IMG/VR virus record: IMGVR_UViG_3300032373_000001
Strand: one strand, 5' to 3'
From: a virus
Taxonomy: Duplodnaviria; Caudoviricetes
DNA: 64,000 nucleotides
Of this stretch, positions 1-26,580 are shown piece by piece; positions within the stretch are counted from its first letter, which is position 1; each line of letters starts with the position of its first letter. Both the position numbers and the translations under genes were made by a program. Below the pieces are notes generated by a model. It was given only the letters and a program-made list of their open reading frames with translations. It was not told where the DNA came from and made no database searches.

Positions 1-514
1 GGGCGAAGGCGTCGGCGAGGACAGCACCGCTGATCGGAGCGACGACCGGGATGTCGGGGTTCTCACCACCGGCGATCGAGTCGAAGCCTGAGGTCGCGAT
101 CGCGTCGAGAACGGCGAACACACGCTCATCCTCAGCAGCCTGGATCTGAGCCTGGGCCAGGTCCTGGGCGCGCTCGATGAGATCGAAACGGCGCTCCTTG
201 ATCTGGGTCAGGGGGATCTCAGGGTTCGATGCGATCTCGAACAGCGGGAAGATGACACGGCGGGGCTTGGTGATGGCGACGATGTTCTCGCCTTCCTCGC
301 CGACCACGTAGGCCGTGACATCGGGGTCCTTGTCGTAGATCGGCAGAGCGCCGTCCGGCAGCTGCTCGACCAGGAAGGTCTTGCGGCCGACGGCCATGTA
401 GTCGCGGCGCAGGCGCAGCGGCTGGGTCATGGAGGCGGCGAGCTTCGCGCGACCGGCTTGGGTGTTGAGGTGCGCCTTGATGAGGCGGGCCTTGACGTCG
501 TTGGAAACGGGCAT
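1..514 (-). CDS. Major capsid protein, N-terminal part (runs off the left edge; not in the ORF track)
   Basis: Manual translation from ATG at 514 (RBS GAGGAGG upstream): MPVSNDVKARLIKAHLNTQAGRAKLAASMTQPLRLRRDYMAVGRKTFLVEQLPDGALPIYDKDPDVTAYVVGEEG...FEIASNPEIPLTQIKERRFDLIERAQ..., open to position 2. Resembles HK97-fold capsids of large myoviruses; follows protease-scaffold-decoration genes; strong codon bias. Confidence 0.85.
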   Translation of the reverse strand, partial: MPVSNDVKARLIKAHLNTQAGRAKLAASMTQPLRLRRDYMAVGRKTFLVEQLPDGALPIYDKDPDVTAYVVGEEGENIVAITKPRRVIFPLFEIASNPEIPLTQIKERRFDLIERAQDLAQAQIQAAEDERVFAVLDAIATSGFDSIAGGENPDIPVVAPISGAVLADAFA

Positions 515-2592: not shown

Positions 2593-4047
2593 TTAGAGGG
2601 TTTGCGGGTTGTTGTTGCGCTCCCACTTGGAGAGCAAGGAGCCGACCCGGACAACAACCCGGAGTTCGGCAGAGGAAAGCTCCCTCCCCGCCGCGCGCAG
2701 GATGGCGCGCTTGTAGTCTTGCGGGGAAGTGTAGCGAACCGGGGAACCGACCTTCAGCGCCACCCGGTAGGGTGCGGGGTCGGTCGGGATGCCGTAGGCT
2801 TGGTTCAGGGTGGCGACCCCTTCCACCAAAGCCACTTGGGAAGAGGCGGTGCGGGTCAGCAGGTCCATGCTGACATGGTACGCCTTGCGAGCAAGTCGGG
2901 CACCAGCCTCTCGCTGAATCGAATCGTTGGGCTGGAATGTGACCTCCGAGTCTGCCTCGGACGCCTCATCTTCCCTCAAGTCCTCATCGATGCGGTCGTG
3001 GACCTTGTCCTTGACCTTCTCGTAGACCTTCTCGGTGAGGTCTTCGAAAGGCTTCTTCGGCTCTTCGCCCTTCGGCGCATCGCCCCCTTCCTCGTCGTCG
3101 TCCTCGAAGTCGAACGCCTTGCAGAACTTGGGGAGGGTGAGGTTGGCAGCCTTGCTCATGGCGGTGTCGGACCAGCCGGTGGGGGCCTGGGCCAGAACAT
3201 CCCGCAGAGCCTTCTTGACCTGAGCGGGAGGGAGGTCACCTGCATCGATCAGGTTGCGCATGACCGCCCCAGGGAAAGCCGGGACCTTGACCCAGCTGGC
3301 CTCGATGAAGTTCACGCCGCCCGGAGCGTCAGGGTTGTCCTTGTAGTCGATGTGGCCGCAGAGCTCTGCAACGACGCGCTTCTGTTGGCGCTCGTCCAAG
3401 AAGCTATTGAGCTTGCTGATCTTGATGTGGTCGCAGAGGTCCGTCTCATCGACCGCGACATGGCCGCACTGAGAGCAGATGGTGAAGTCTGTGGTACAGC
3501 CCATGCTGAGGGTGCCCATGACCCCAGCCCTGATGTCGCGGACCAGGGTCTCGTGCTTCCGGTCGGTGGCGACCAGAATGTCGATGTAGACCGAATCCCC
3601 GATGTCGCGGGCGACCGCATCCAGGATGCGACCCTTACTCTGGGCCTCGATCTGGACGTGCTCTTGGAAGTTGTGGCCCGCGATGAAGGTGGGGTAGCTC
3701 GCCGTCAGGACCGGACGGCTCCAGCAGTCGCCGTTGTTGTTGACGAACTGAGCCGACTTGTCGGTGATGTAGAAGTCGCCCCAACGACGGTCGATGGTCC
3801 GGGACCCGACCCGGACCCGACCCAGCTTGGCGTTGGGGGCCTGCTCAGTATCCACCGAAGCCACGATGGTGCAGTGAGTGAACAGGTACTTGTCGGGGTC
3901 CAGGCTGCCGCCCAAAATCTCCCTCGCCTGATCTGTCAAGTTGCGGTTGCTCGCACCCGAGGTTGCAGCGGTGCGCGTTCGGCTCCACTGGCGACGACTC
4001 ACGTAGGGGTGAACCACCATGGCATTGGCTTTCTTCGAGTGAGCCAT
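2593..4047 (-). CDS. Prohead maturation protease (HK97/assemblin-like) with C-terminal extension
   Basis: Motifs NNNGDCW, FIAGHNFQEH (His), GTLSMGC (Ser), Cys cluster CSQCGH...CDH, then FIEASWV.VPAF; position upstream of scaffold and capsid genes. Confidence 0.75.
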   Translation of the reverse strand: MAHSKKANAMVVHPYVSRRQWSRTRTAATSGASNRNLTDQAREILGGSLDPDKYLFTHCTIVASVDTEQAPNAKLGRVRVGSRTIDRRWGDFYITDKSAQFVNNNGDCWSRPVLTASYPTFIAGHNFQEHVQIEAQSKGRILDAVARDIGDSVYIDILVATDRKHETLVRDIRAGVMGTLSMGCTTDFTICSQCGHVAVDETDLCDHIKISKLNSFLDERQQKRVVAELCGHIDYKDNPDAPGGVNFIEASWVKVPAFPGAVMRNLIDAGDLPPAQVKKALRDVLAQAPTGWSDTAMSKAANLTLPKFCKAFDFEDDDEEGGDAPKGEEPKKPFEDLTEKVYEKVKDKVHDRIDEDLREDEASEADSEVTFQPNDSIQREAGARLARKAYHVSMDLLTRTASSQVALVEGVATLNQAYGIPTDPAPYRVALKVGSPVRYTSPQDYKRAILRAAGRELSSAELRVVVRVGSLLSKWERNNNPQTL

Positions 4048-5088: not shown

Positions 5089-8000
5089 TCAATTCCGGTG
5101 CAAATCGGACGCTTGCTTGCCGGTGGCAGTGATGAGGTTCTTCAGGTACTCCTGAACCCAATCGAGGAAGGCACGCTTAGACCGCAACTCTGTCATCTTG
5201 CGTTTAGGGGCAGCTTTGGCCCGCGCTTTCTTGGCAGCCCTCTTGTGGTCAGCGACCACTGCTTCGCGGCCGACCTCTTTGGTCACCGCCGGGTCCAAGA
5301 ACGCGGTCTCAGCCTGCATCAAGTCGATGAGGTGCTGCCGGATCTCATTGCGGTCCTCGTCGCTGAGGTAGCCTGAGCGGTCGGGGTCGGTGAGGAACTG
5401 AACCAGGGAGGCACCCGGATGGTCTTCCGGCAAGAGATCTTCCAAGTCTTGGTCCGTCAGATCCTCGTAGATGCTGCGCATCATGCGCTGGTCTGCCAGA
5501 CCCGAGCCACCGTACATGGAGAGGCCAGCCAACTTGTCCAGGGACCCAGCTTTATCTGCTGCCTGAACCAAGCGTGCCATAGAGCTGGCAACGCCCGTAG
5601 CCTTGTCCCCGTCTTGGATGGCGCTGGCCATCCCGATCCCACGCTGGATCGCCTCAAGGTGGTCCCGTTGGGCACTGTCCTCGGGAAGACCCTCAATCTT
5701 CTCTTCGACCCTTTCCCAGTGTCGCTGACGGGTATCCGCATCCAGCTTCTTGTAGGAAGAGACCGCGCTCAAGGCACGCTCCGCAGCAGCCTTCTTGCTC
5801 TCCTCGGAAGAAGCCTCACCCTTCGGAGGAAGCGGGTCTTCCAAGTCTACTGCGGGGTTGTCCAGCACGTTTTCGTAGTAGGCCATAAGCGCCAGGTTCT
5901 CCGCCAAGGTGGTGGGGTCCTTCACCGAACCTTTCTGGACCTGATCCGTCATATCCTTCAGGGCTTCCAGCAGCCGAGAACTGTCGGGGATGGCCTCTCG
6001 AACCAGCGAGGAGGACGCAGTACTGAACTGCTCCTTGAACTCCTCATACTGATCCGCCCCGAAAGAGTCCAAGACCTCGCGAGTCTTGTCGCGGGAGTCC
6101 TCGGGAACCCCCCTCAGTGCCCTGGTGGTGTACTTCTTCCGCTCCGTAAAATAGCGGTCCAGGGAGACCTCCGAGCTCTCATCCTCTTTCGGCTTGTCCG
6201 CCGAGGGAGCCTCTTTCTCGGGAGCCGCCTCATTCTGCTGGCGGAGCTTCTCTTGCTGAGACTCAGGCAGGGAACCGAACTCGACCTTGTTCCCGGTCTC
6301 TTCGGAGGTGTACTCCTTGCCCTCTGCCCAGTCAGGAACCTTCGCTGCCATACGAGCTACCCTGGCAGCGCTGGGCATGCGAGGGTAGCTTCGATCAAAA
6401 GGGTCGGGGGTCGGGACCCCCGAGGCCCGCTGTTCGCACTGACGCGACCGGATGCGGGTCTCATGTAGACCCGCATCCTTGTAGTTCTGGGAGCGGTCTT
6501 TCTTGTCCTGCTTCTCGTCGGGATCCTGATCTCCGTCGGTGTCGACCTTGCGGTTCCGGAGGTCCATGCGAGGAGGCTTCTTCTTGGGGGACTGCTGTAC
6601 CAGTTTCTCAGCTTCCCGGTCGTCCTTCTCCCCCTCGCTGAGAGTCGACTGCTTGAACCAGACTGCGGAGAGCTGACCCGACAAGGATGCCTTGACCTTC
6701 TTGCCCTTGTTCCGCTTCTCGTTGACCCACCGCCAGAACTGACCGATGGGCATGGTGGAGATCTCACCCTCCTTGAAGTATCCGGGCTTAGAGTACTGGT
6801 TCTTGTAGGCCCCGATGGCCTCCTCGACCGAGTTGAACCCCAGCATCACCTTGTCTTCATCGTACTTCCCGTCCCAAGGGTTGTGCTGATGAACCACGAC
6901 CACCAGAGAGCTGTCGTGGTTATCGCCCACATACACGTCGAGCTTGTCGCCGTCCGTACCCTCGGTGCCCCGGATCTCCCCGTAGTGGCAGATCATCTTG
7001 ACGGACCAGGGCTCCCCGTCAGGGTCCGTGCCGGAGCGGGTGCTGCCCTTCTTGTTCTCCACGTCGATCTTGACGCCCTGGAAGTCGATGAAGCCTTCGA
7101 AAGGATACTCTTTCCGCTTGGCCTTGGGGGGGAGGACCTTGACCGGGTGGAAGTTATGGGGAGACTCGACCAACTTCTGGTTGGTCGAGGCGAACTTCAC
7201 CGTATAGCCAGCAATCTGACGGGTCAGGTCCCCCACGCGATAGCTGAGGAGCTGAGCCTCTTCGTTGTCCCAGAGGTCCCGCACGTCTTCAGCAAGGTCA
7301 TCGATGCGGCGGAACAAGCGGATAAACCCGAGACCCGGCAGGGCGGGTCGCTTGCCGCTGCGGGGCTTGATGTAGCCCTCTACGACCTCCCGGAACTGTC
7401 GGTGGAGGTCGTAGAGCTTCCGGGATGCCCGGTGTGCCCCTTCTACGGCAGCCTCTGCGGCCAGCGCCTTGGTAACCGTGCTCAGATCTTCAACCTGCTG
7501 ATGGAAGGGCGACCGGATCTTGAGCGGGAACACGTCTGCAAGTTTGAGGGTCGCGAACCTCCAAGCACGCGGTCGGGCCGACCCCTTGCGCACGGACTCC
7601 ACGTGACGCATGAACTTCAGAAACTTAAAGCTCAGCGACTGAAGCTCCCAACTCGGCCAAAGCTCCGACGCCTCGTAGAGTGCCTCATCAGCCTCTTTCA
7701 TCTTCCCCAAGAAGTAGTCCCACTTGGGTTCCACGAGCGGGTTCTTGCGGGACTGCTTCATAGAGGGCTCGATGCCATCGATGAACGCGGAAGACATCTT
7801 TGCGTAGGCCCGGCCCAGCAGGGCTTCAGCGGCCTGAGCTCCAGGGTCATCCCTGAACTTGGTGCGCGACCCATGGCTGAATGCAGCGATGCGCGCCATG
7901 AGGTTGTAGGATTCCTTGTAGAGCGGGAAATACCGCCACGCCGGGTCAGCGTATCGGGGGCGCTCCTGGCCCGCATCCATGAGCTGGAGGTTGTCGTAGA

Positions 8001-9507
8001 CCCCCGAAAGCCCGGTCGCCTCCTTGGCGAGGCGGAGTTGGCAGCGGTTGTTCACGTCTACGATACGAGGGTTCTTGAGCTTGGTCGCATCGAACCACGC
8101 GGTGCTCTCGATCATCCAGCCCTCGACGAACGGGGCACCGCGCGCCGTGACGTGAACTCCGTCGTAGAAACCGGCGACCTCCGCCCAGTCGATGCGGATA
8201 TCGGAACCCTCTTCTTCGTAGTCATCCTGCTCAAAGGTCACTGGATCGAGGTAGGCGAACGGGTACACCAGCCCGAAGAGATAGTCCCTCTGAGAGTCGA
8301 TCACCAAGAGGTTCGCTGAAGGGGCCGGGTCCAGCAAGACCGCCTTCTCTCCGACCCACTCCGGCATCTCACCCTTACACCAGTCCAACCACGGAGAGAT
8401 GTTGCCCTTCAAGGTGCTGGTCCAGAACGCCTCGCGGGGCTTGAACCGGGCTACCTTCGGACTGAACATCTTCCGGAGGGTCTGGTACTGAAACTTCTGT
8501 CCGGGGCGGAGCAGGAAGACCTGAGTCCCGAGAGCCTTGGCTTGACGCTCCGAGGCGAACCGCTTCAGGAGCTCCCGGACCACCTGCTGACGGTATGCGG
8601 GCTCGGTGAGACCAGACTCCTTGACCTGCTGAGCCCAGACCCCAGCATCCTGCTCCAGCTTCGCCTGGGCATACTCCGAAAACCTGGCATAGCGCGTAGT
8701 CATAGAGGCTTCCTTGTCGAGCTTGTCCAACACCGTACCGTCCTGAAGGAAGCGGTCTACCATCCCAGGGACCAGGTACTGGCTTTTGAGCGTGCTGGCC
8801 TCATGGCCCACAGCTGCTGCCGCAATCTCCAGGGCATCGGCGAGCTCTTGCTTCAGGATAGGGTCCCGCTCTTTCCGGGGCGTGGGAAGCTCAGGACCAT
8901 CGCTGCGGATCTTCTTCAGGGCTGCACGCACCTCTTCGTTTGCGTGAAGACCCCGGAGGTCCTTGGCGGTGACCCCAAACTCCTTGAGGTAGTCGTTGAC
9001 CTCGGAGGCAGTGATGGAGCAATCCGCACCCTCGCAGAGCACCTTGTCGTCTGAGCCTTTGCCGTCGAGCGCCTTCTTCAGCGCCCCTACCAGGGCACCG
9101 TCTTCGACGGTTTTGTCGTGCTTGACGCCACTCTTCCCCACGTACTTGAAGGTGGCCTTGTTGCCCTCCACCGTGACGTGCTTCTTCAACCAGCCAGTGA
9201 CCCCGAAGTGCCCATCCTTGGCCGACTCCGGATTGCCCACCCTCTCGTAGGTGTTGTCGATGAGGGCCACAGCCAAGGCCGTAAGGCGCTTCTGAGGGTC
9301 AGAAGCGGAGAGGTCCTTCTTGTACTTCGACCGGAGCTTGCCGATGCTCTTGCGGAGCTTTTCGACGCGCTTGGCCTTGGCCTTGTTCCGATTGGACTGC
9401 TGGATGGGGCCGTACTCGTACACGGTCGTCTTCCCCGAGCCGTCTACCTTGTCGACCTCTTTCTTGTTCTTGTACTTGGCCAGGACCCGGCTCGGATCAA
9501 GTTTCAC
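5089..9507 (-). CDS. Giant multidomain protein: type IB topoisomerase, ART-like domain, inorganic pyrophosphatase-like domain and unknown domains
   Basis: Probable GTG start at 9507 (GTGA overlap). TopoIB pentad: YERVGN (R), GKSGV (K), KDLRG (R), GH-x8-Y (H,Y). InPase-like ENKKGSTRSG...HYGEI.GT.G.DGDKLDVYVG...YDEDKVMLGF. FWTS...YDGVH...WMIES domain is ART-like by inference. Confidence 0.8.
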   Translation of the reverse strand: MKLDPSRVLAKYKNKKEVDKVDGSGKTTVYEYGPIQQSNRNKAKAKRVEKLRKSIGKLRSKYKKDLSASDPQKRLTALAVALIDNTYERVGNPESAKDGHFGVTGWLKKHVTVEGNKATFKYVGKSGVKHDKTVEDGALVGALKKALDGKGSDDKVLCEGADCSITASEVNDYLKEFGVTAKDLRGLHANEEVRAALKKIRSDGPELPTPRKERDPILKQELADALEIAAAAVGHEASTLKSQYLVPGMVDRFLQDGTVLDKLDKEASMTTRYARFSEYAQAKLEQDAGVWAQQVKESGLTEPAYRQQVVRELLKRFASERQAKALGTQVFLLRPGQKFQYQTLRKMFSPKVARFKPREAFWTSTLKGNISPWLDWCKGEMPEWVGEKAVLLDPAPSANLLVIDSQRDYLFGLVYPFAYLDPVTFEQDDYEEEGSDIRIDWAEVAGFYDGVHVTARGAPFVEGWMIESTAWFDATKLKNPRIVDVNNRCQLRLAKEATGLSGVYDNLQLMDAGQERPRYADPAWRYFPLYKESYNLMARIAAFSHGSRTKFRDDPGAQAAEALLGRAYAKMSSAFIDGIEPSMKQSRKNPLVEPKWDYFLGKMKEADEALYEASELWPSWELQSLSFKFLKFMRHVESVRKGSARPRAWRFATLKLADVFPLKIRSPFHQQVEDLSTVTKALAAEAAVEGAHRASRKLYDLHRQFREVVEGYIKPRSGKRPALPGLGFIRLFRRIDDLAEDVRDLWDNEEAQLLSYRVGDLTRQIAGYTVKFASTNQKLVESPHNFHPVKVLPPKAKRKEYPFEGFIDFQGVKIDVENKKGSTRSGTDPDGEPWSVKMICHYGEIRGTEGTDGDKLDVYVGDNHDSSLVVVVHQHNPWDGKYDEDKVMLGFNSVEEAIGAYKNQYSKPGYFKEGEISTMPIGQFWRWVNEKRNKGKKVKASLSGQLSAVWFKQSTLSEGEKDDREAEKLVQQSPKKKPPRMDLRNRKVDTDGDQDPDEKQDKKDRSQNYKDAGLHETRIRSRQCEQRASGVPTPDPFDRSYPRMPSAARVARMAAKVPDWAEGKEYTSEETGNKVEFGSLPESQQEKLRQQNEAAPEKEAPSADKPKEDESSEVSLDRYFTERKKYTTRALRGVPEDSRDKTREVLDSFGADQYEEFKEQFSTASSSLVREAIPDSSRLLEALKDMTDQVQKGSVKDPTTLAENLALMAYYENVLDNPAVDLEDPLPPKGEASSEESKKAAAERALSAVSSYKKLDADTRQRHWERVEEKIEGLPEDSAQRDHLEAIQRGIGMASAIQDGDKATGVASSMARLVQAADKAGSLDKLAGLSMYGGSGLADQRMMRSIYEDLTDQDLEDLLPEDHPGASLVQFLTDPDRSGYLSDEDRNEIRQHLIDLMQAETAFLDPAVTKEVGREAVVADHKRAAKKARAKAAPKRKMTELRSKRAFLDWVQEYLKNLITATGKQASDLHRN

Positions 9508-12500
9508 AGCTGACTCCAACGGAGGGACAACTCTCGCATTGCCTGAATGCTGGCGAGACGCCCGGCATCTTGAAGGGGGGTATTCGGGGGCAAGTACCCA
9601 GGACTCGAACCGAGCGGGATGTTCTCTGGGGCACCCATGCCCCAGATCTGGACGCTGTTGAAGTCCCAGGAGCCCCGGGGAGCCTCCAACCTCACTTCCT
9701 CACCTACAGGCACGTAGGCGATCGTGACGTGGGGATTCCAGCGGGGGAACGAATCCTTGACCTCGAACCCCGCCTCTTCGAGCCGTGCGCGGAGCCCATC
9801 TCTGGCCCGATTGAGGTCGCGACTGAACCGGACCCTGCTGAAGATGACCTTTTGCTCAGGGCTCAAGAAGCGGTCCAGCCCTCTCAGGGCAGCCCGGACC
9901 GGGCCGCGGACCTCACTGAACGCCTGGGTGCAGACAACCTTGAAATCTTCCTCTCGCCCCTCGGGGACCTGACCCACGTACAGGAGGGTGATGTGGGCCG
10001 GGGATGGGTCCTCACTCTTGGTCGGGTACTGAGCCGCCAACCCCTCCGGGAGGGGAATGAACAGGCCCACAGAAGTGCCCGTGGGAGGGACCACCGCAGC
10101 AGCCTGGGCGGAAGCCGTTCGGCTCTGAGGGGCGGAGGCTCGCCGGGACATAAAAGTGTGACCCCTTTCCCGGCCCGTCTCGACGAACCCGCGACGCTTC
10201 AGCATGCGAATCGCGTGAGGGTTGACTGCATCCAGGCAGAAATCCAAATCCTCGAAGGCTTCAGAGATTGCATCGTACTCGTCGATGGCATAGTCCATGA
10301 GCTTGGCCCCGAGGCCCTGCTTTTGCCTGTCGGGGCGGACTGCGATGTCGAAGGAGTAGCAGTCGTTGCTAACCTCGTCGAACAGTACCGCGACCAGCTC
10401 CCCGCCGACCATGAGCCCTGCCTTGAAGTCCTTGCCGCTGAAGATGTTGATGCCCGCTTGCTTGGCGATCTCCCAAGGGTCCGGGCCATCCCACGGAACC
10501 TCGAAGACCCACTCGACCCGATTGCTGAGCTTCAGGGCCTTTTCCTCGCCGCCTGCTGCCAAGATAAGGACACCGTCCTCTTCTTTGAGCACATCACCCT
10601 CGAACCGGGCTCCCTGAGCCGTGGTCCAAGCGACCTTGGTCTGCTGGGTCCACTTCTCCCCATCGGTATCTCGTCCAGCCTCCAGCGCGCCGAGATAGAA
10701 CCAGTGCTCTTCGATGCTGGCACGATCTGCGCCGCGAGGCAGGGCAGCCGTAGACGCCCCGTAGTCGGGTTCGGTGACCAGCTCCCAGGTGTTGGAGTAG
10801 AGGACCGGGACGCCCGCAGCGTCTTCTTTCGACTGGCCGATCGTCGGGTGGATGCTCGCAGTACGACTCATGCCCGCCCCCTTGGGCTGAGGAGAACCAT
10901 TCGCATACAACCGGGAACCCCGAACATAGCGCACCAGGTCCTGTTCTCCCAGCTGATAGGGGGTGTTGCTCAAGAGACTCATGGCCTGGGCCTTGGTCAT
11001 CAGCTTCGGACCCTTCAGGACGACGTCCTGATTCCAGGTGACCTCTTCCGAATAGGAGGGCTTGGGCATGGTGTCGGTCCGGAACCGGATTGCAACGACC
11101 GGACCCTCATCCTTGTCGATGTGGGTAGTCTGGGTCCCCGGGACGTAGTCTCCCCACACCAACGAGATGGCATACACGGCATAGCCGCCGAACTTCTTGA
11201 TTCCGGGCGGGTCAAGCAAGAGCTTCTTGGAGCGGAGAATAGAGGCAGCACGCTTGGCGGTGGTGAAGTGGACGAACTCATCCGACGCCAAGTTCATCTC
11301 ATAGACGCGGCCTTCCATGAAGGTGGTCTCGCTCGTGGGCGTCGGACCCGCAGAGCCCACCTTAACCTTCATGGTATCTCCAGTCCACTCCCCACCCTTT
11401 TCCTTGTACCACTTGGCAGCCCACCCTTGATGGAATCGGACAGGCATCTTGGGGTGCTTATCTTGGGCCGACCTCAGCGCCTCGGCCCAGAGGGCTGCAT
11501 TCTCGGGCTTGCCGAAGTCCCCCTCAAAGAACTCCCTTGAACCCTTGAACCAAGCCGCCCGAAGCTGGCGAGACGCAGCGCTGGAGAACAGGCCCGCCAC
11601 AGCCTTGTAGGCTTCCCCGATCGCCTTCCTGTACTTGCCCTGAGCAGAGGCTCCGGCCCGCTTCAGGTCATAGAAGAACGCAAGCGGATAGGTCCGGGTG
11701 TCGTGCCGGCGCTGGCCCACCATGATGCGGAAAGCTGCTGCCCGTTCCTCTATCGGGAGGGCTTCCAACCCCTCCCGCATACGCTCAATAGCGTCCGGCA
11801 ACTTGGTGTAGAACTCCCGGTCGTCCAGCGAATGCTGCGATCGGTTTTGGCCCTGCTGGCGGATGTCCGGGGTGCGGATCTTCTTGCCGGGGAGGCCCGC
11901 CTGGATCTTGTCGGAGGCGAATCCCGCCAGAGTGCTCAGGAGGTTCTGGGCATAGTGGCGCATCTCGTGCTGAAGGGCCTGCTGGATCCACTTGGCGTTG
12001 ACCTTCGGGCTAACCTCGACCTCTATGACGGCGGTGCGCGGGTCGAACTCGGCCGAGCGACGACCTCTGGTGTCGCTGAGTATCAGATTCACCCCAGGCT
12101 TCTTGGCACTCCGAAGGATGTCACGCTTCATATTCTCGATGTAGGCGAGCATGTAGTCCGGGATCGGACCTTCCGGGGGCTGGAGCTTCTTCAGGAGGTC
12201 AGCGTTTTCCTTCTCGATCAGCTCCTCAAGGCGGTCCCCGTACTTCCAACCCTTGAGGTCTGCTTCGAACCTCTTCTGAACCGGCCCGCTCAACACCACG
12301 GCTTCTGGGTGGAGCTTGCTGAGCCGTTCCCACTCCTCCCATGCAGAGTTGTCGGAGCCCATGCCTTGGGCCACGCCCTTGTCCATACGGGTTTTAGCCC
12401 AAGAAGCGACGGCCCAGCGATACATCTCGTCCAACATCGCCGGAGGAGCTTCGAGCAGACCTGCCTGCTTCGATGCAACGAAACGGTCAGGGATACCCAC

Positions 12501-14897
12501 GGGCCGGGTAGCAGCGGCGCACTTTTCAGAAGAGATCCTGACCGTCGGGAGAACCTGCCGCAACATCCCCAGGATCATATCCGGAACAGCCTTGGGGCCG
12601 AAGGCAACAAGTTTCCCCAACGCTTCACAGAAGGACTCCTCGGGGTTCTTGTTGGCGTACCCGCTGATAGGTAGCCCCGGAACGCGGACCACGGGGGGCC
12701 CGCCCCCTTCCAGATAGTCCCGGATGTCCTCTGCTGAGTCGAGGCCCTGACTCGACGCGGGGCCGTACTCCAAGGCAGAGAGTTGGAGGTGTAGGATAGG
12801 GTCCGCCTTCTTCAAGGCACTATCGATGACCCAAGAGGCACCCACAGATTCCATCTTCCGAAGAGCCCGGCGGAGGTCCAAGTCCTTGGAGGTCCCCCGA
12901 ATGAGTCCCCCCCAAGTCTTCCGGGCATCTCCGGAGAGCACCGTCTGGTAAAGGTGATGGCCCATCTCATGGGCCATCACCCAGACAAACCTGCGGATGT
13001 CCGAGCCGAGCTCCCAAGGGGTGACGTGGATCATCCCCCTCTCATAGTAGGCCCCTGCGCTGCTGGGGACCCCCGCCTCAAAATTCCACTGAATGTGGAC
13101 CGGGACCATACGTTGGAGAATGATGGGGGCGGTTTGTTGGGAACGCTCCCGAAAGAGGGCCAAGCCCTGCCGAACGATCGGGAGTTTGTCTTGGTACGGG
13201 GAGTCTTCGAAGCCTCGGAACACCACGCGGAACCCCGAGAGGCTCACGACCTCTTCCTCCGGGACCAGAAAGGGGATCGGCTCCTGACCGCCGCGCAGAC
13301 TCGCAGACCACTCTGCCAAATCCCCAAGCACCGACCACGACTTGCGCGCCTTTGCCCGGATGCGGTTGGCCCACTTTCGGGCTTCGTCTTTCCACTTGCC
13401 CAGAGCTTCCACTTCGGCTTCCTGCCGGGACCAGAGCGGACGGCGCGTCAAGTAGGACCGAGTCTGAGCCTCTGCGTCCTCTCGAGAGGACGCATATCCC
13501 CGGTCCAAGTAGAACCGGACGAGCTCTTCAAACAGTTCCTCTGGGGGTCGCCAAGGGTTCCCCGAGGAATCCTTCACCGGAATTTGAGAAGAGGGGACCC
13601 TGCCCACCTCATAGGCGAACTCCCACATCGGCTTGAGTGCTCGATCCAAGAAGGCGCGGGCATCTTGAACATTCGCAGGGGAAGTCCTCCCAGGATACTG
13701 GGAGGAGCGGATGCGGCCTTCCAAGTCCTGGCGGACAGTAGCCGTGAAGGAATCGAAGTGCTCCCGCCAACGGTTGACGGCAGCAGATACCTCCTGGGCC
13801 TGAGAGATGCTTTGAACGCGGTCAGCGGCCTTGGCCAGGGCCAAGATGTCTTTCCGAAACCTCTGGATAAGGTTCTCGTCCAGCACTTCCTTGCGGGCAG
13901 TCTTCCCCGGCCCCTTCTTGTCAGCGGCTTCCATCTGCTGGAGGATCTTCTTGACCCAAGCGAGCCCAGGGTCACCGCCCCACAGGAGCCAAGAGACGTA
14001 CCCCTTGTCGTTCCAGGGCTCGCCCTTGTGCTCTTCGGAAATGCCCTTGTTCTTCTGGTGCCGACTGAAGAAGCCGTGCATCTGCTTGATGGTGTCGGGG
14101 GCGATGTTGTCGCGGTTCTTCAGGTTGACAGCGCGCTGAACGCCGGACCCGATGCCCTCTTTGCCAGCTTCCTCGGAAGTCAGACCGCCCTTGTTCGAAG
14201 GGGACGCCTTCTGACGATACTCCAAACCCTTCTCCGCAGCTTTCGCGACCGACTCCGGAGGCTGGAAGTTGATGCCCTTGTATTTCTCCGGCACAGCCGA
14301 CCGAAAGCTAAGGGCCTGCTTGAACCTGCGTGGACTCAAAAGGGAGGCTGCGCGGGGGAAAGCAAACCGCACCGGATCCTGACTGACTCGAACAGGGAGG
14401 TCAAGACCAACATCCCTCAAGAGGGTGGAGGCCCTCGAGACCCCGCCAGCCGAAGGGACCAGGAGCCCCATCATTGCCCCGCTAACCTTGACCGGGGCAT
14501 ATTCCCGCTTGGAGACCCACTCCCCCTCATCCTTTTTCCAGAGGAAGGAGTCGAGCATCGCCTGCCCCTGAGCCTCCTCGACGCACTCTTCATCCTCCTC
14601 GCCCCACTCCTCGTCGTAGCAGCCATCAGGGATTTGGAACTGCTCATACCAACCCTCCCCCGCGATGTAGTCTGCGTGAACGGGGTGCTCCTCGGCCCAA
14701 CGCTCTGTGTATTCCACGGGAATTAGCTGGCTCCGGAGCTTAGAGGCATCCAGCACCAAGCACACATCCCGATGACTGATGTCACCGCTGAACAGAGGCT
14801 TCACCGAGAAGCTCAAGAAGGGTGCGGGACTCTTCATGACCCCCGAACGAAGAATCTTGAGCGCGTTGGACCAAGAAGTGGTGTGGTAGAGATTCAA
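9504..14897 (-). CDS. Giant multidomain (polyvalent-type) protein: two ART-like domains, two zincin metallopeptidases, GNAT acetyltransferase, 2H phosphoesterase
   Basis: N-terminal YHTT...LSFS...EGEW; PPESVAKAA...WLLWGGD head-associated domain; HEMGH...YANKNPEESFCE; HEMRH...EFY; FVHFTT...SEEV; GNAT RQKQGLGAKLM...LKRRGF; 2H motifs HITL and HVTI. Confidence 0.8.
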   Translation of the reverse strand: MNLYHTTSWSNALKILRSGVMKSPAPFLSFSVKPLFSGDISHRDVCLVLDASKLRSQLIPVEYTERWAEEHPVHADYIAGEGWYEQFQIPDGCYDEEWGEEDEECVEEAQGQAMLDSFLWKKDEGEWVSKREYAPVKVSGAMMGLLVPSAGGVSRASTLLRDVGLDLPVRVSQDPVRFAFPRAASLLSPRRFKQALSFRSAVPEKYKGINFQPPESVAKAAEKGLEYRQKASPSNKGGLTSEEAGKEGIGSGVQRAVNLKNRDNIAPDTIKQMHGFFSRHQKNKGISEEHKGEPWNDKGYVSWLLWGGDPGLAWVKKILQQMEAADKKGPGKTARKEVLDENLIQRFRKDILALAKAADRVQSISQAQEVSAAVNRWREHFDSFTATVRQDLEGRIRSSQYPGRTSPANVQDARAFLDRALKPMWEFAYEVGRVPSSQIPVKDSSGNPWRPPEELFEELVRFYLDRGYASSREDAEAQTRSYLTRRPLWSRQEAEVEALGKWKDEARKWANRIRAKARKSWSVLGDLAEWSASLRGGQEPIPFLVPEEEVVSLSGFRVVFRGFEDSPYQDKLPIVRQGLALFRERSQQTAPIILQRMVPVHIQWNFEAGVPSSAGAYYERGMIHVTPWELGSDIRRFVWVMAHEMGHHLYQTVLSGDARKTWGGLIRGTSKDLDLRRALRKMESVGASWVIDSALKKADPILHLQLSALEYGPASSQGLDSAEDIRDYLEGGGPPVVRVPGLPISGYANKNPEESFCEALGKLVAFGPKAVPDMILGMLRQVLPTVRISSEKCAAATRPVGIPDRFVASKQAGLLEAPPAMLDEMYRWAVASWAKTRMDKGVAQGMGSDNSAWEEWERLSKLHPEAVVLSGPVQKRFEADLKGWKYGDRLEELIEKENADLLKKLQPPEGPIPDYMLAYIENMKRDILRSAKKPGVNLILSDTRGRRSAEFDPRTAVIEVEVSPKVNAKWIQQALQHEMRHYAQNLLSTLAGFASDKIQAGLPGKKIRTPDIRQQGQNRSQHSLDDREFYTKLPDAIERMREGLEALPIEERAAAFRIMVGQRRHDTRTYPLAFFYDLKRAGASAQGKYRKAIGEAYKAVAGLFSSAASRQLRAAWFKGSREFFEGDFGKPENAALWAEALRSAQDKHPKMPVRFHQGWAAKWYKEKGGEWTGDTMKVKVGSAGPTPTSETTFMEGRVYEMNLASDEFVHFTTAKRAASILRSKKLLLDPPGIKKFGGYAVYAISLVWGDYVPGTQTTHIDKDEGPVVAIRFRTDTMPKPSYSEEVTWNQDVVLKGPKLMTKAQAMSLLSNTPYQLGEQDLVRYVRGSRLYANGSPQPKGAGMSRTASIHPTIGQSKEDAAGVPVLYSNTWELVTEPDYGASTAALPRGADRASIEEHWFYLGALEAGRDTDGEKWTQQTKVAWTTAQGARFEGDVLKEEDGVLILAAGGEEKALKLSNRVEWVFEVPWDGPDPWEIAKQAGINIFSGKDFKAGLMVGGELVAVLFDEVSNDCYSFDIAVRPDRQKQGLGAKLMDYAIDEYDAISEAFEDLDFCLDAVNPHAIRMLKRRGFVETGRERGHTFMSRRASAPQSRTASAQAAAVVPPTGTSVGLFIPLPEGLAAQYPTKSEDPSPAHITLLYVGQVPEGREEDFKVVCTQAFSEVRGPVRAALRGLDRFLSPEQKVIFSRVRFSRDLNRARDGLRARLEEAGFEVKDSFPRWNPHVTIAYVPVGEEVRLEAPRGSWDFNSVQIWGMGAPENIPLGSSPGYLPPNTPLQDAGRLASIQAMRELSLRWSQL

Positions 14898-22151: not shown

Positions 22152-22490
22152 TCAGCCCTTCCCGTGCTCGTCCGAGGCCCCACGGACCGGCCACCGACCG
22201 CTTGCGCGGGACTCCGTCTCAGCGCTGAGGATCTTGTCCTCATTGATCTCCTCCAGAGCCTCCAGCTCCTCGACGAACCCCTTGATCAGGGACTGAGCTT
22301 CGGGGCTCGCGGGGTCCGTGTGGGGGAAGGCACCTTCGAGGGACTTGGTCACTGCCCGAACGACCCCGCGAGAGTAGAGCGCGACCTTGTCCAAGCTGGT
22401 CAGGATCGCCCTGCGGGTCTCGTCACCCTTCGGGAGAGAGCGAGCCAGCCGCACCAGAGCCTGTCGCTCCTGCTTCGAAATCCTTTTCAT
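22152..22490 (-). CDS. Small hypothetical protein
   Basis: 112 aa, RBS AGGAGG; leader ERQALVRLARSLPKGDETRRAILTSLDKVA. Confidence 0.6.
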   Translation of the reverse strand: MKRISKQERQALVRLARSLPKGDETRRAILTSLDKVALYSRGVVRAVTKSLEGAFPHTDPASPEAQSLIKGFVEELEALEEINEDKILSAETESRASGRWPVRGASDEHGKG

Positions 22491-24327
22491 CGGAGGTCCT
22501 CCTATCCAGAGTTGCCGATAAGGAAAGGATTGCTCTGGCGAGGGCCTCTATCGAGACAGTGTCGCCCGAAGCGGTCTTGAGGCTGGCGAAACGCCCTTGG
22601 CTCTCCTTGGGTTTGGCGTAGGTCAACCCCAAACCCTTCGCGAGCTGGGACACGACGTCGGAGTTCTCGACCAGCTGCCGTCCCGTGTCGCTATAGATGC
22701 CTCGCATCATCTCGTTGTATGTCGGATCGTTGACGGTCAGCCGGTCCCGCTCGACCTTCTCCCGCACAGCCACCGGATCGAGGTTCAGGAGCTCCAGGAT
22801 GGTGTCGATGTCCAGCGAGCCCTTCTGGTACAGGTTGTAGAGCGCGTCGAAGGTGTCCCGGTTGTCCCGCAGGGCAAGGCGGGTGAAGCTCAGGGAGGGG
22901 ACCAAGACAATCTTATCCCCGTCCTCGTCTTCCTCCACAAAGCCCATACGAGCACACATAGGACGCAAGAGGATTTCTTCCACCAGTTTCTGGAGCTGCT
23001 CTCGCAAGAGCATGTAGCGGGTGTTGATGGCCTCCAGGTTCACCCGGTCCCCGGAATAAGAGCCCTCTCCTGTCAGGAGGCTCTCCGTGATGCCCAGGCC
23101 CGCATACAACTGACGGTTGGTCAGCTCATACTCGCCGTCCAGGTTCAAGAGGCGCTGGTCTGCCCCCATTTCTTCCCAGCGGACCTCGAAGTTGGAGACG
23201 ATGGAATAATCCGGGTCCATCAGGGCCATATCGACCTGCTCCCGGAGGTCCTCCACGTCACCCAGGCTAAGATCTTCCCCGTACACAATGCGGATAGGGG
23301 TCATGTGCCGCGAGGCGATGGAGGTCTGAGCCTGACGGAGCTTGTCCCGATAGACCAGGGCTCGCATGCAGCACTGGAGGATCGAAGTCCCACGGGCCTC
23401 GTAGTCCGACTTCTTGTTGTAGAGGCAGTACACGAAGCTGCCAGCATACGGGTCCGTACCCAAGACCACGTTCCCACCCTTCCGGACCGCGTCGATCAGG
23501 TGGGGAGGCATGTCATCCACGACCTCCTTTGCCACCGGGTCTCCCGCTGCCGCCTGCTCGATGACCTTCTTGGTCTCGGAGTCCGGGAGCATCTCCACGA
23601 TCTTCTTGTCGGTGAAGTTAAACGTGCGGACCCTAATGTTCTCGGGGGGGAGGCAGACCAACTTGGTCCAGCCCTTGTAGTTCTTCTTCAGCCACTTGGC
23701 AGCGCGCTTGTCGGCGTCCTCGTACTTGATCCTCTTCTCTACAGCCTCACCATCTTCCGTCAAAACCCGCTGCGTGTAGTGAGTGATATCTTCCGGCATC
23801 TCCGGGTTCTTGTCCTCGCACCAGAGATACACCTCGCCGATGAGGTTGCGCTCACGGGTGATCGCCAAGAGCCGGTCCGTCAGGTCGATGCGCCGGACCC
23901 ATTTCTCACAGAAGCGCATCGCCGCCTCCGCCATCTTCCGATTCTTGGCGCGAGGGATTGCCAACCGTACCTTGCTGATCGGCAGGATGGAATGTAGGGA
24001 AATCGCCTGGCTGACGTAGGGTTCGTTCTTATCGAAGAAGCGGTAGTAGGCCCACTGCTCATGGAGGCTCTGGGGCAGCTCCAAGAAGTCCGTGGAGAGC
24101 TCCGGGGAGTAGAAGTTGCCTCCGGCTCCCATCACCGACCCGCCGTTGCCGAAGCCGCCTCCACCGTAGGATGCGGTCCGAGACTTCATCTGGCTGGAAA
24201 CCACCCGCCGAGGCGGGCCAGCCTTGGCCTTCTTCTTGCCGTCTCCGTTGGAGACCTTGTTGACCACCTGAGCATCATCTTCTTGCTGCTTGCCCAGCCG
24301 CTGGCCGAACCCCTTACGACGACCCAT
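22423..24327 (-). CDS. Portal protein
   Basis: YRFFDKNEPYVSQAISLH..., RERNLIGEVYLW, RGTSILQCCMRALVYRDKLRQAQ...IASRHMTPIRIV; near terminase; ATG 24327 with GAGGAG RBS. Confidence 0.8.
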   Translation of the reverse strand: MGRRKGFGQRLGKQQEDDAQVVNKVSNGDGKKKAKAGPPRRVVSSQMKSRTASYGGGGFGNGGSVMGAGGNFYSPELSTDFLELPQSLHEQWAYYRFFDKNEPYVSQAISLHSILPISKVRLAIPRAKNRKMAEAAMRFCEKWVRRIDLTDRLLAITRERNLIGEVYLWCEDKNPEMPEDITHYTQRVLTEDGEAVEKRIKYEDADKRAAKWLKKNYKGWTKLVCLPPENIRVRTFNFTDKKIVEMLPDSETKKVIEQAAAGDPVAKEVVDDMPPHLIDAVRKGGNVVLGTDPYAGSFVYCLYNKKSDYEARGTSILQCCMRALVYRDKLRQAQTSIASRHMTPIRIVYGEDLSLGDVEDLREQVDMALMDPDYSIVSNFEVRWEEMGADQRLLNLDGEYELTNRQLYAGLGITESLLTGEGSYSGDRVNLEAINTRYMLLREQLQKLVEEILLRPMCARMGFVEEDEDGDKIVLVPSLSFTRLALRDNRDTFDALYNLYQKGSLDIDTILELLNLDPVAVREKVERDRLTVNDPTYNEMMRGIYSDTGRQLVENSDVVSQLAKGLGLTYAKPKESQGRFASLKTASGDTVSIEALARAILSLSATLDRRTSDEKDFEAGATGSGAAGSLSPEG

Positions 24328-24667
24328 CTGCAATCTCCTCCGCCGCCTGCTGCTCAGCCGCCCTCAAGAGGGCTTCTTCTCGCTCCTGTCGGACCCGTTC
24401 TCGGAGCTGTTGCGCCAGCTCATCCTCGGTCATCTCGTCGGTTTCTCGAGGGCCATTGCTGTAGGGGCTCACCATGCTGGGAACGTCCTGGATCATCTCC
24501 AGGAGCCCCCGGAGGTGCCGCAGGGTCCTTCGCTTCCGCTGAGGAGGTACGCCTACGGCTTCTGAGGCAGAGCGGAGTGCAGCACGGACCTCGGACTCCG
24601 CTCGACGAAGGCGGATCAGGACCTCACGGTCTTCCGCGCTACTCTGGCGGATCCGGAAACGAGTCAT
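24314..24667 (-). CDS. Hypothetical protein
   Basis: 117 aa helical ORF, translationally coupled between terminase and portal. Confidence 0.55.
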   Translation of the reverse strand: MTRFRIRQSSAEDREVLIRLRRAESEVRAALRSASEAVGVPPQRKRRTLRHLRGLLEMIQDVPSMVSPYSNGPRETDEMTEDELAQQLRERVRQEREEALLRAAEQQAAEEIADGSS

Positions 24668-26580
24668 CGACGGCGGCCTCGGGGAATGGTGCGACTACTG
24701 TGGGACCCTACCCCAGTGCGGCGCGCGGACCTTCGGGAATTCCCGAAGGGGGTCTTGCCTGCTGAAGGCAGGCCCCGGCGACCGGACGCCCCCAGCGTTG
24801 CATGCTGGTAGGTCTTGTTCTGGGTAGCGCAGAACACCATGCGAACCAAAGCGTCACTGTAGTCGTCGTGTTTCCCTTCCATCTGGGGGGCCTCGACGTT
24901 GACGATGTACTTGGACTTGTACTCCGCCTGAAGCTCCAACAGCTCTTGGATGTAGTCACACCACTCCTCGTCGTCCGCCAACGGCCAGTTGTAGAGCCGC
25001 ATCTTATGGTCCATCATGAGGTGCATGAAATTGGTGTAGACCTGGGAGTTGAAGCTGGGGTTGAACAGCTTCGACTTGATGTTCTTCAGGCCACGGCGGT
25101 TCAGCGCCTGCTCGAAAGGGATGCCAGCCCACTGGTCGAACATCCCCTCCACGATGTAGAAGCGCTTGCTCAGGTCGTAGACCCAGTCCGCGACGTGATC
25201 GAACTCCAACCGCTCGTAGTCTGCGTAGTCGCCCTCGCCAGCGCGGATGCGCTCGATGTAGTCCAAGACTACGTTGCCATCCGGGTCGTTGTGGCCAACG
25301 GCGACTGCAGAATAGTCGCCGACGAGGGCGATGTCGACGCCCATGAAGTGGGGGGCGCGAGGCTGTGCCCGGAGCTTGGGGCGCATGTCGGGGACCACGC
25401 AATCGTGCAGGTCCTTGGGGGTCTGGATCCAGCCACGAGTCTGATCGCTGAAGATCGCACCGAACTCAGTGTCGAAGACGTTGGGGTCCTTTAGGTAAGA
25501 ACCGACGAACGTCTCAGCAGGAACTGTGGGGTTGACCTCCCACGTAGGGGCCTGGATGCAGAGGAGGTTGTCTGCGGCTGCGTTGTCGCCAAAACCCAAC
25601 CGGAACTGCTTATAGAAAAGGCCCTGCTTGCCCAGCGGCGAGGAGATCATGATGATCCGACCCTCGTTCTCTCCGACAGGCTTGGTCTTGTCGTTGGGGT
25701 CCTTCTTGCTGAAGGTACGGGTAGAAGGCTCGACCGCCTGATAGACCTCGTCGGCCGACGCCTGCCCCTTGTCTCCGAAGTGAGCGACCTCATCCAGGGC
25801 AACCAGCAGGTTGGCTCCACCACGAAGGCCCTTAGCCACACAAGACCGGAAGGTCACGTTGATGCTGAACCGGGCCTTGGGGTTGTCCGCGTAGGACCCG
25901 TACTGCTCGATGTCATAGGGGGTCTGGAAGGTGGCATAGCTCTGCGTGGCGTTCGCAGCATAGGGTCGGAAGAAGTCACACTTGGTGAAGTGCCCCGAGG
26001 CCTCCCTGTAGAGCAAGGACGCCTGGTCCTTGTCGGTAGCGACCGAGATCAGCTGGATGACGTTCGATTGAGAAGAGCCGTAGTATGCCTGGGGGTTGCC
26101 CTTCAGGAGGAGCTTGTACGCCTCATAGGCGACGATGCAAGACGTGATCAGCGTCTTCCCAGAACGGCGACCAACACTGAGTACCATCTCGCGGCGCTGC
26201 CTGCCAGGGACGACCGCATCGATGTTGCAGCGGCCCTCACTGTGGAGGTACTTGATGTAGCTGGCCTCGGTGTGGTACTGAGGGTTCTGCCGCCGGAAGT
26301 CTGTGATGACCACCCGATAGACGTAGAAACCATCCGTGTCAACGAGGTCTTCGTCGTAGGCTGGGTGGTTAGTCGGGATCGGCACATCCAGCGGGAACCC
26401 GAGGGGGTTGTCGTCCAGCCCCATACCATAGTGGGCCTTGAGGATGATACGCTGAACCGGGAACAGCTTGAGGCCCAGCCCCCACTCACTCTCCACGAAC
26501 GTAATGATGTCAACCGCCGCATCGTCCGTAGAGTTAGACGAGCGGCGACCGACGCCAGCTACCAGGTTCCCCAGGCTCAT
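24664..26580 (-). CDS. terL: Terminase large subunit
   Basis: Walker A SVGRRSGKT, Walker B VALDEVAHF, coupling motif MISSP, nuclease MGVDIAL and HDDYSDA. Confidence 0.92.
   Translation of the reverse strand: MSLGNLVAGVGRRSSNSTDDAAVDIITFVESEWGLGLKLFPVQRIILKAHYGMGLDDNPLGFPLDVPIPTNHPAYDEDLVDTDGFYVYRVVITDFRRQNPQYHTEASYIKYLHSEGRCNIDAVVPGRQRREMVLSVGRRSGKTLITSCIVAYEAYKLLLKGNPQAYYGSSQSNVIQLISVATDKDQASLLYREASGHFTKCDFFRPYAANATQSYATFQTPYDIEQYGSYADNPKARFSINVTFRSCVAKGLRGGANLLVALDEVAHFGDKGQASADEVYQAVEPSTRTFSKKDPNDKTKPVGENEGRIIMISSPLGKQGLFYKQFRLGFGDNAAADNLLCIQAPTWEVNPTVPAETFVGSYLKDPNVFDTEFGAIFSDQTRGWIQTPKDLHDCVVPDMRPKLRAQPRAPHFMGVDIALVGDYSAVAVGHNDPDGNVVLDYIERIRAGEGDYADYERLEFDHVADWVYDLSKRFYIVEGMFDQWAGIPFEQALNRRGLKNIKSKLFNPSFNSQVYTNFMHLMMDHKMRLYNWPLADDEEWCDYIQELLELQAEYKSKYIVNVEAPQMEGKHDDYSDALVRMVFCATQNKTYQHATLGASGRRGLPSAGKTPFGNSRRSARRTGVGSHSSRTIPRGRRR

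Follow-up and report, generated by a model that had tools for sequence, protein, structure and literature searches.

A head-module polyvalent protein of a tailed phage with a recurrent basic-x-Ala-small motif at most module borders, a putative site of prohead protease processing

Bacteriophage T4 loads its internal proteins IPI-III and Alt into the head by a capsid-targeting sequence, and gp21 cleaves them at (L/I)-x-E. In the MuF-anchored polymorphic toxins of temperate phages, a head-morphogenesis domain carries a variable enzymatic cargo. Prohead proteases of the HK97 and T4 types share the assemblin fold, and the sites of herpesvirus assemblin follow (V/L/I)-x-Ala|Ser. In this study, we analyzed a DNA stretch of 64,000 nucleotides (the window) from a large uncultured phage, virus record IMGVR_UViG_3300032373_000001 (Duplodnaviria; Caudoviricetes), which encodes a protein of 1797 residues, P0001, within the head module. 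R-x-A-S or the looser [RK]-x-A-[SAG] is present at most module borders of P0001. We consider it fairly probable that P0001 is a cargo polyprotein of the virion that would be diced by the prohead protease at these linker motifs and ejected with the DNA. The closest described systems are the polyvalent proteins, which were proposed to be packaged and possibly released proteolytically by embedded metallopeptidases (Iyer et al. 2017, PMC5512222); neither a shared junction motif nor a prohead protease was proposed in that work.

The polyvalent proteins of that study and P0001 have in common that many unrelated effector-type domains are joined in one chain, that the domains are shuffled rapidly, and that the genes lie beside virion genes; delivery with the DNA and possible proteolytic release were also proposed for them. 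Unlike in that set, the junctions of P0001 carry a defined motif common to head proteins, which points to the prohead protease, and the presumed loading handle is an undescribed helical domain (module B) rather than MuF or DarA; MuF was undetected by Pfam. As proposed for P0001, cargo enzymes of T4, including an ADP-ribosyltransferase (ART), enter the prohead, are shortened by the maturation protease at a brief consensus site, and are finally ejected. However, the T4 cargo consists of separate proteins with one N-terminal leader each, whereas the chain of P0001 would be cut at about 8-10 places, and the T4 motif is x-Glu, whereas that of P0001 is basic-x-Ala|small. P0001 would share with assemblin the Ala|Ser bond and a determinant at P3, which is basic in P0001. 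The MuF toxins have one C-terminal toxin, whereas P0001 has many cargo modules and its presumed carrier, module B, has no Pfam match. In the large phages phiKZ and SPN3US, a single prohead protease (gp175 and gp245, respectively) processes numerous head and ejection proteins at one motif, in some cases at several sites of the same protein; however, these enzymes strip N-terminal propeptides after Glu, and no cutting of multi-enzyme polyproteins at each domain border is described for them (PMC10052503, PMC5694885). The distinctive feature of P0001, beyond the known polyvalent and internal head proteins, is a junction rule that holds across its family.

P0001 is a real open reading frame (ORF) at 9504..14897 on the minus strand, with a TTG start and 1797 open codons; its GC content at third codon positions (0.76) was similar to that of the adjacent genes, and an identical protein is recorded on a contig of 270,829 bp. 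Module borders were drawn from block shuffling, using BLAST of P0001 against 184 fetched relatives, from which the family counts below were also drawn. Since the borders were defined by shuffling among homologues, they are independent of the motif. Blocks at residues 199-328, 329-~800, ~810-1139, 1130-1171, 1188-1333, 1317-1604, and 1583-1767 were reused elsewhere in other orders or combinations, indicating that the modules are autonomous. About ten modules were distinguished in P0001, compared with the 2-15 unrelated effector-type domains by which polyvalent proteins are recognized. One homologue used in this mapping, P0002 (83% identity over the aligned parts), lacks module A, has another module in place of module C, and contains two extra modules, one of approximately 285 residues inserted exactly at 1333/1345 and one of 55 residues ahead of the 2H domain.

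R-x-A-S occurs in P0001 at residues 182, 1216, 1345, 1585, 1593, and 1780. Five of these six sites were located in the linkers, which account for only about 9% of the length of the protein and were disordered in the structural models. In the linker between modules A and B (residues 176-203; 14289..14372), where the predicted local distance difference test (pLDDT) score was below 50 and where the start of P0002 falls, RAAS (182-185) is followed by RSAV (199-202), which aligns with a family-wide [RK]-x-A-[AS]-x-P site just ahead of module B. The border between B and C is marked by the variant KTAR (332-335; 13893..13904), and the linker between C and D (787-813; 12459..12539) contains RISS 787, KCAA 792, RFVAS, and KQAG 810, which are looser or near-miss sites. 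The block borders of homologues fall at 790-810 in this linker; in orthologues, RISS is replaced by RIAS, and RFAAS is found in P0002. The linker between E and F (1334-1348; 10854..10898) contains KGAG and RTAS and is the insertion point in P0002, in which K-K-A-G-M-S-R-S-A-S is kept before the following module. RRAS 1585 and RTAS 1593 lie between the GNAT and 2H domains (10110..10145), past the last GNAT strand and with pLDDT below 50. Finally, RLAS (1780-1783) precedes a 14-residue C-terminal tail (9507..9560) with counterparts in P0002 and P0003: RLAS|IQAMRELSLRWSQL is kept in the former, and the latter terminates in REAS|SRLRSAWGNVQ.

An earlier sequence-only reading of this DNA had placed the same protease-like motif at almost every domain boundary. 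Most borders are indeed marked, and the strict sites were found where that reading requires them, in independently mapped linkers; however, strict R-x-A-S is present at only four of about nine borders, the others having degenerate variants or none. The RAA proposed as a junction at 1113 is not a canonical site. The remaining R-x-A-S, RAAS 1216, is part of the first helix in module E, away from any border, and is not conserved among homologues; similarly, KQAG 1479 sits in the first GNAT helix. In another respect the motif proved stronger than had been claimed, as it recurs across the family at the 2H, D2, TopoIB, and head-associated modules and is shared by other head proteins.

Next, we describe the motif across the relatives. 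Internal copies of module B are preceded by [RK]-x-A-[AS]-[VIT]-P-x-K-Y and followed by K-x-[KQT]-A-[SAG], 8-14 residues past QMEAAD, where KTAR 332 aligns. [RK].A[SAG] was found in 55 of 100 flanking segments upstream of module B and in 91 of 158 downstream, compared with 7.5% of background segments, and most permuted patterns reached 7-28% around this module. The 2H domain has [RK]-x-A-[SA] upstream in 20 of 25 relatives, 10-13 residues ahead of G-[LF]-F-I-P-L. The mini-module D2 is directly preceded by R-x-A-S-[DE]-N-E-P-T in 20 of 24 relatives, a site missing in P0001; TopoIB has a site within 30 residues upstream in 19 of 29, and the CCA module has an upstream site in 8 of 16. Hence, for four of the five module types checked (the head-associated domain, 2H, D2, and TopoIB), a site usually stands at a near-fixed upstream distance, whatever module precedes. 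A module B protein from a Vibrio phage with a different type of head assembly contains such a site only once along its 660 residues, indicating that the motif is a trait of the lineage and not of module B.

Free-standing versions of the modules pointed to the position of the putative cut. Fourteen free B proteins begin with M-[ASG]-x-P-K-K-Y, whereas internal copies read [RK]-x-A-[AS]-x-P-K-K-Y; for example, M-A-V-P-K-K-Y corresponds to the internal R-x-A-A-V-P-K-K-Y, with Met replacing the P1 Ala. Likewise, the CCA module starts with M-S-A-Q-I-E-V-M when free and reads K-K-A-S-E-Q-V-E-V-M when internal, and C-terminal copies of module B end just short of the downstream site. These natural N-termini at P1' imply cleavage between A and S, and we infer that the scissile bond would lie between Ala and the small residue.

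The motif was also enriched in other proteins of the head module. R.AS was counted 18 times in 14 head-module proteins (7.7 thousand residues), compared with 1-8 times (mean, approximately 4) for eleven permuted patterns composed of the same three residues with the same gap; in the rest of the window, the count was 11 compared with approximately 4. Sites were present in the portal, in the 805-, 240-, and 205-residue proteins, and in the C-terminal region of the prohead protease. The occurrence of one motif in both P0001 and other head proteins is as expected of a maturation protease site. Furthermore, the leaders of orthologous small head proteins differ, yet they end with K-S-A-G or R-T-A-G directly before the conserved body. 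P0001 itself begins directly with module A and has no short N-terminal capsid-targeting leader.

The prohead (head maturation) protease of 484 residues is encoded at 2593..4047 on the minus strand and matched phrog_18299 ('head maturation protease', 2.8e-8). Annotations as prohead protease exist for its homologues in Tunturi_5, Rhodococcus E3, and Gordonia phages, and His130, the Ser in S-M-G-C, and E-A-S-W-V-x-x-P-A are conserved. The site in its tail, L-x-R-[TV]-A-S-S-Q-V-A (R at 399), is kept in an orthologue of 58% identity. Besides, a conserved Cys-rich insertion, C-S-x-C ... C-D-H, is present at about residues 150-300 (3148-3600 in the window), as in Tunturi_5 and Rhodococcus E3, and is likely a zinc ribbon. 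In a closely related phage, the orthologous protease (L001:20966-23689) has 907 residues instead of 484 and shows Hint/LAGLIDADG matches; an intein appears to be present within this gene.

In the published model for metallopeptidase-bearing polyvalent proteins, the embedded peptidases are the proposed cutters, and P1 DdrB is processed (PMC5512222). By analogy, the zincin-like modules C and D could process P0001 at the junction motif themselves, either inside the capsid or once ejected, and might act on further head proteins as well; the invariant HExxH motifs of both modules and their sub-threshold matches to Zn-peptidase families fit this explanation. However, sites with fixed spacing are also found in relatives with no listed peptidase family. 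Many relatives with junction sites, such as P0009 (CCA enzyme, 2H, and TopoIB), list no peptidase among their precomputed Pfam families, from which a protease acting in trans would be needed, with the reservation that these lists would miss modules of the C and D types, which are undetected by Pfam. The sites in the portal, the protease, and other head proteins also speak against self-processing, and the conserved site in the protease tail fits self-trimming by that enzyme. We regard processing by C and D as distinctly unlikely. Because of the sites in other head proteins and the conserved site in the protease tail, the prohead protease is favored over these modules as the candidate processing enzyme.

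In its genomic setting, P0001 belongs to the head module, with the portal on one side and the prohead protease on the other. The order on the minus strand is the large terminase (TerL, 24664-26580), the portal (22423-24333; both from PHROG and Pfam scans), five small or medium genes, the 805-residue gene, whose stop is 9 nucleotides before the start of P0001, P0001 itself, a gene for a second polyvalent protein of 1476 residues (5089..9519), two small genes, the protease, a 398-residue scaffold-like protein, a 223-residue protein, and the major capsid protein (MCP). This portal-P0001-protease arrangement was repeated in three diverged metagenomic loci. The ORF truncated by the start of the window (2-514) showed 47% identity to the major head protein of Tunturiibacter phage Tunturi_5. 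The 398-residue gene was also considered as the MCP and was rejected, as locus L003 and Tunturi_5 place the MCP at the truncated gene. The 1476-residue protein matched both Pfam Topoisom_I and InPase, with TopoIB at residues 42-246 and InPase at 808-932, and has a DPSRVLAKY leader of the family type at its N-terminus. Its start overlaps the stop of P0001 by 16 nucleotides, and the same pair overlaps by 4 nucleotides in relatives, which suggests that the two genes are translationally coupled. The 805-residue neighbor showed no detectable kinship to the 'DNA ejection protein' of Tunturi_5, a search of IMG/VR for related loci with the 398-residue protein as the query found none, and a DNA-level search of cultured phages gave nothing beyond one match of 88 bp.

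Module B (residues 204-328; 13914..14288), which the sequence-only reading had called a head domain, stood up well as such: it was modeled as an all-helical fold with pLDDT above 90, and related domains occur as fusions with portals from three families, with S78, Mu-I, and XkdF proteases, and with one scaffold-like protein. In cultured phages, module B is located between the portal and the MCP. The assignment of module B as a head-associated domain is well supported. At least 3300 representative clusters contained this module at E<=1e-3; identity reached 60-77% in proteins otherwise unrelated to P0001, and the best 150 matches ranged over 44-77% identity within the module in proteins of 153-1879 residues. 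In relatives its partners, in many orders, include the CCA enzyme, TopoIB, PAP2, InPase, SOD, ITPase, and 2H. Module B gave no Pfam match at E<=5, Phage_Mu_F included, and 72 of its relatives gave none at E<=0.1 except two weak DUF6321 matches. Comparison with the PDB (Foldseek, VIA) gave no convincing match, the best Z score of 5.0 being helical-bundle noise, and no paper naming DUF5824, DUF3721, DUF6321, or DUF3140 was found in the literature searched. Under the broader proposal given below, module B would be a general anchor to the capsid interior and might also tether DNA by means of its G-I-G-S-G hairpin. In the 44-kb cultured Vibrio phage 1.214.O, module B forms the N-terminus of the 659-residue gp07 (L006:4995-6974), the middle of which resembles a prohead protease or XkdF and the C-terminal part of which is an acidic coiled coil. 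The gene is located immediately ahead of that for the MCP; this protein looks like a B-protease-scaffold fusion.

Several observations weigh against the packaging and processing of P0001 proposed above. In P0001, the borders between D and D2 and between D2 and E have no site, and several others have only variants. Only four of ten sites in the head proteins were kept in the L003 orthologues (43-58% identity); the site of the scaffold-like protein was not conserved, and the MCP has no site. The protease had no Pfam or PDB sequence match, its family being assigned from PHROG and the annotation of homologues, and no measurement of cleavage specificity, either for this protease family or for phage G, was found in the literature searched. 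Moreover, 18 free B proteins begin with M-R-R-x-A-[SA], in which the motif is kept with almost nothing to remove, so that another role, such as docking, may apply. Finally, in a 413-kb groundwater phage contig (L007), a related polyvalent protein with module B, a CCA enzyme, and InPase lies outside the head module, beside genes for an SNF2 helicase, thymidine kinase, and the baseplate.

The retention of M-R-R-x-A-S at extreme N-termini fits an explanation in which the motif is an uncut border mark, either a linker or a peptide for docking to the scaffold, portal, or DNA, or else a side effect of module recombination, and the chain acts intact. N4 vRNAP, ArdC, and TraC1 do travel uncut (PMC5512222). 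A longer peptide, [AS]-S-R-V-A-x-R-[YW]-L, which recurs in relatives and is also present at the C-terminus of P0038, looks like an amphipathic tag. However, free modules start exactly at P1' or end just before the site, the order-specific enrichment over permuted patterns speaks against mere composition, and the motif is lacking in the phage that has module B but another type of head assembly; an uncut motif is thus unlikely in our view, though less so than self-processing. A peptide of about 10 residues, (D)P-x-R-[VI]-A-[SA]-[RK]-[YF], was also found to recur at N-termini, C-termini, and linkers of unrelated proteins, including the C-terminus of P0038 and the N-termini of L003:5664-6245, L003:16855-20136, and the protein at 5089-9519 of the window. 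This peptide may be a capsid-targeting tag separate from the minimal cut site.

The position of the related protein in the groundwater phage bears on a third explanation, namely that P0001 is a late cytoplasmic multi-enzyme protein that is absent from the virion and merely resides in the head operon. The conservation of the portal-to-protease position in three diverged loci and the existence of portals, proteases, and scaffolds fused to module B argue against it, and we consider it very improbable. The reading of P0001 as virion cargo cut by the prohead protease is retained in the following description.

The enzyme modules were identified with different degrees of certainty. The sequence-only reading had described P0001 as an effector polyprotein of the polyvalent type; its domain order was essentially right, with the motifs at the positions given and TerL, portal, protease, and MCP genes flanking. 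Its GNAT and 2H assignments were borne out, both exceeding the Pfam cut-offs with catalytic motifs present. The 2H phosphoesterase (residues 1611-1767; 9597..10067) matched Pfam 2_5_RNA_ligase2 with 41 bits (cut-off, 27) and has the H-x-T motifs HIT at 1635 and HVT at 1723. The GNAT acetyltransferase (~1470-1584; 10146..10490) matched Acetyltransf_1 with 29.3 bits (cut-off, 20.7) and Acetyltransf_7 with 28 bits (cut-off, 27), and contains the acetyl-CoA motif RQKQGLG at 1524; the identity was confirmed by fold matches to RimI, Naa50, and other GNATs over model residues 353-471. The modules A, B, C, D, E, and F1 gave nothing significant in Pfam, PDB-sequence, and profile searches.

For the two zincins of that reading, the HExxH motifs were found as described and are invariant, whereas the matches to Zn-peptidase families were sub-threshold only. 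Module C (336-786; 12540..13892) contains HEMGHH at 643-648 (HEMGH, 643-647, at 12957-12971), and its block is common to seven homologues (P0003, P0004, P0005, P0006, P0067, P0088, and P0148). H-E-x-x-H-H and one downstream E are invariant among eight homologues, and DUF5700, a putative Zn peptidase, matched four of eight members below the threshold. In module D (814-1110; 11568..12458), HEMRH is located at 977-981 (11955-11969); six homologues share the H, E, and H and a DDxEF block without change, and DUF6782, a putative metallopeptidase, matched three of six members below the threshold. SprT-like and M48 families were also among the sub-threshold matches of these modules. Modules C and D are zincin-like, though not proven to be zincins.

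Two ART-like domains had also been claimed, of which the second gave a consistent ART signal and the first was not established. In module E (1201-1333; 10899..11297), H1210, VYAxS 1241 (Y1242), and EEV 1284 (E1284/1285) are conserved. Its model (pLDDT 55-83) matched the ART toxin TreTu (7zhl) with a Z score of 5.3 and a root-mean-square deviation of 2.8 over 84 residues; in the model of 1120-1600, GNAT dominated the match lists, module E surfaced as this single row, and F1 was absent. In an Atlas feature search, the named matches were nearly all ART families (DarT/PARP, 0.93; Arr-ms in 63 of 100), with Tox-ART-HYD1, exotoxin A, ART-PolyVal, and AcrIF11 also matched. Module E is a probable ADP-ribosyltransferase. 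Module A (1-175; 14373..14897) has a free-standing homologue, P0038 (191 residues; 61% identity over 1-173), and its N-terminal motif HTTS..A..ILRS is like that of module E. Its Atlas search gave a weak DarT/PARP lead (rank 22, score 0.90), and its AlphaFold2 model, which was folded without P0038 in the alignment, was of low confidence; an ART fold of module A is possible but unproven. A word-based homologue search found one new relative of module A and none of residues 1185-1480.

The list of modules in the sequence-only reading, in which HFTT 1210, SEEV 1283, and KQAG 810 were correctly placed, had missed the mini-module D2 (1128-1172; 11382..11516). D2 comprises two helices (pLDDT 80-87) with GWAAKWY and is common to P0021, P0070, P0101, and P0152. 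The pattern ..LW..A...A.....PSAY.NGWA.KWY...GG.W is recurrent in many relatives. Module F1 (1349-1465; 10503..10853) is partly beta, with a low-confidence model, no family match, and P0002 as its sole homologue.

Taken together, the following course would account for these findings. P0001 would be made late alongside the head proteins and taken into the prohead, most likely with the highly conserved module B as the loading handle, because this module is fused to portals, prohead proteases, and scaffolds in other phages. In the prohead, the serine maturation protease (2593-4047) would cut the exposed linkers at [RK]-x-Ala|[Ser/Ala/Gly]. The predicted products are A (1-184), B (~202-334), zincin-like C (~335-790), zincin-like D with or without D2, D2 with ART-like E (to 1347), F1 with GNAT (1348-1587), 2H (1596-1782), and small peptides. 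These pieces would be ejected with the DNA and may act at once on host RNA, protein, or signaling molecules; the anti-defence role suggested in the sequence-only reading is hypothetical.

A broader proposal, which we hold tentatively and put slightly below an even chance, is that the cargo is plug-and-play: in this lineage of large phages, each module would move through evolution as a cassette that brings along an [RK]-x-Ala|Ser site on its upstream side, and any combination strung together with the head-loading module B would be packaged and diced by the head protease into an injected enzyme cocktail. If true, such a system would parallel, in a DNA phage, the processing of viral polyproteins. 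The basic-x-Ala|small rule for linkers would predict the mature virion-delivered enzymes in a large uncultured group of big phages, and opaque ORFs of 1000-3000 residues would become testable effectors (ART, GNAT, 2H, CCA enzyme, TopoIB, pyrophosphatase, and others). The processing enzyme of polyvalent proteins would shift from embedded metallopeptidases to the prohead protease, and a specificity would be defined for a protease family common to mycobacteriophage cluster C-like and Rhodococcus phages. In addition, module B flags a very large uncharacterized family of head-associated domains.

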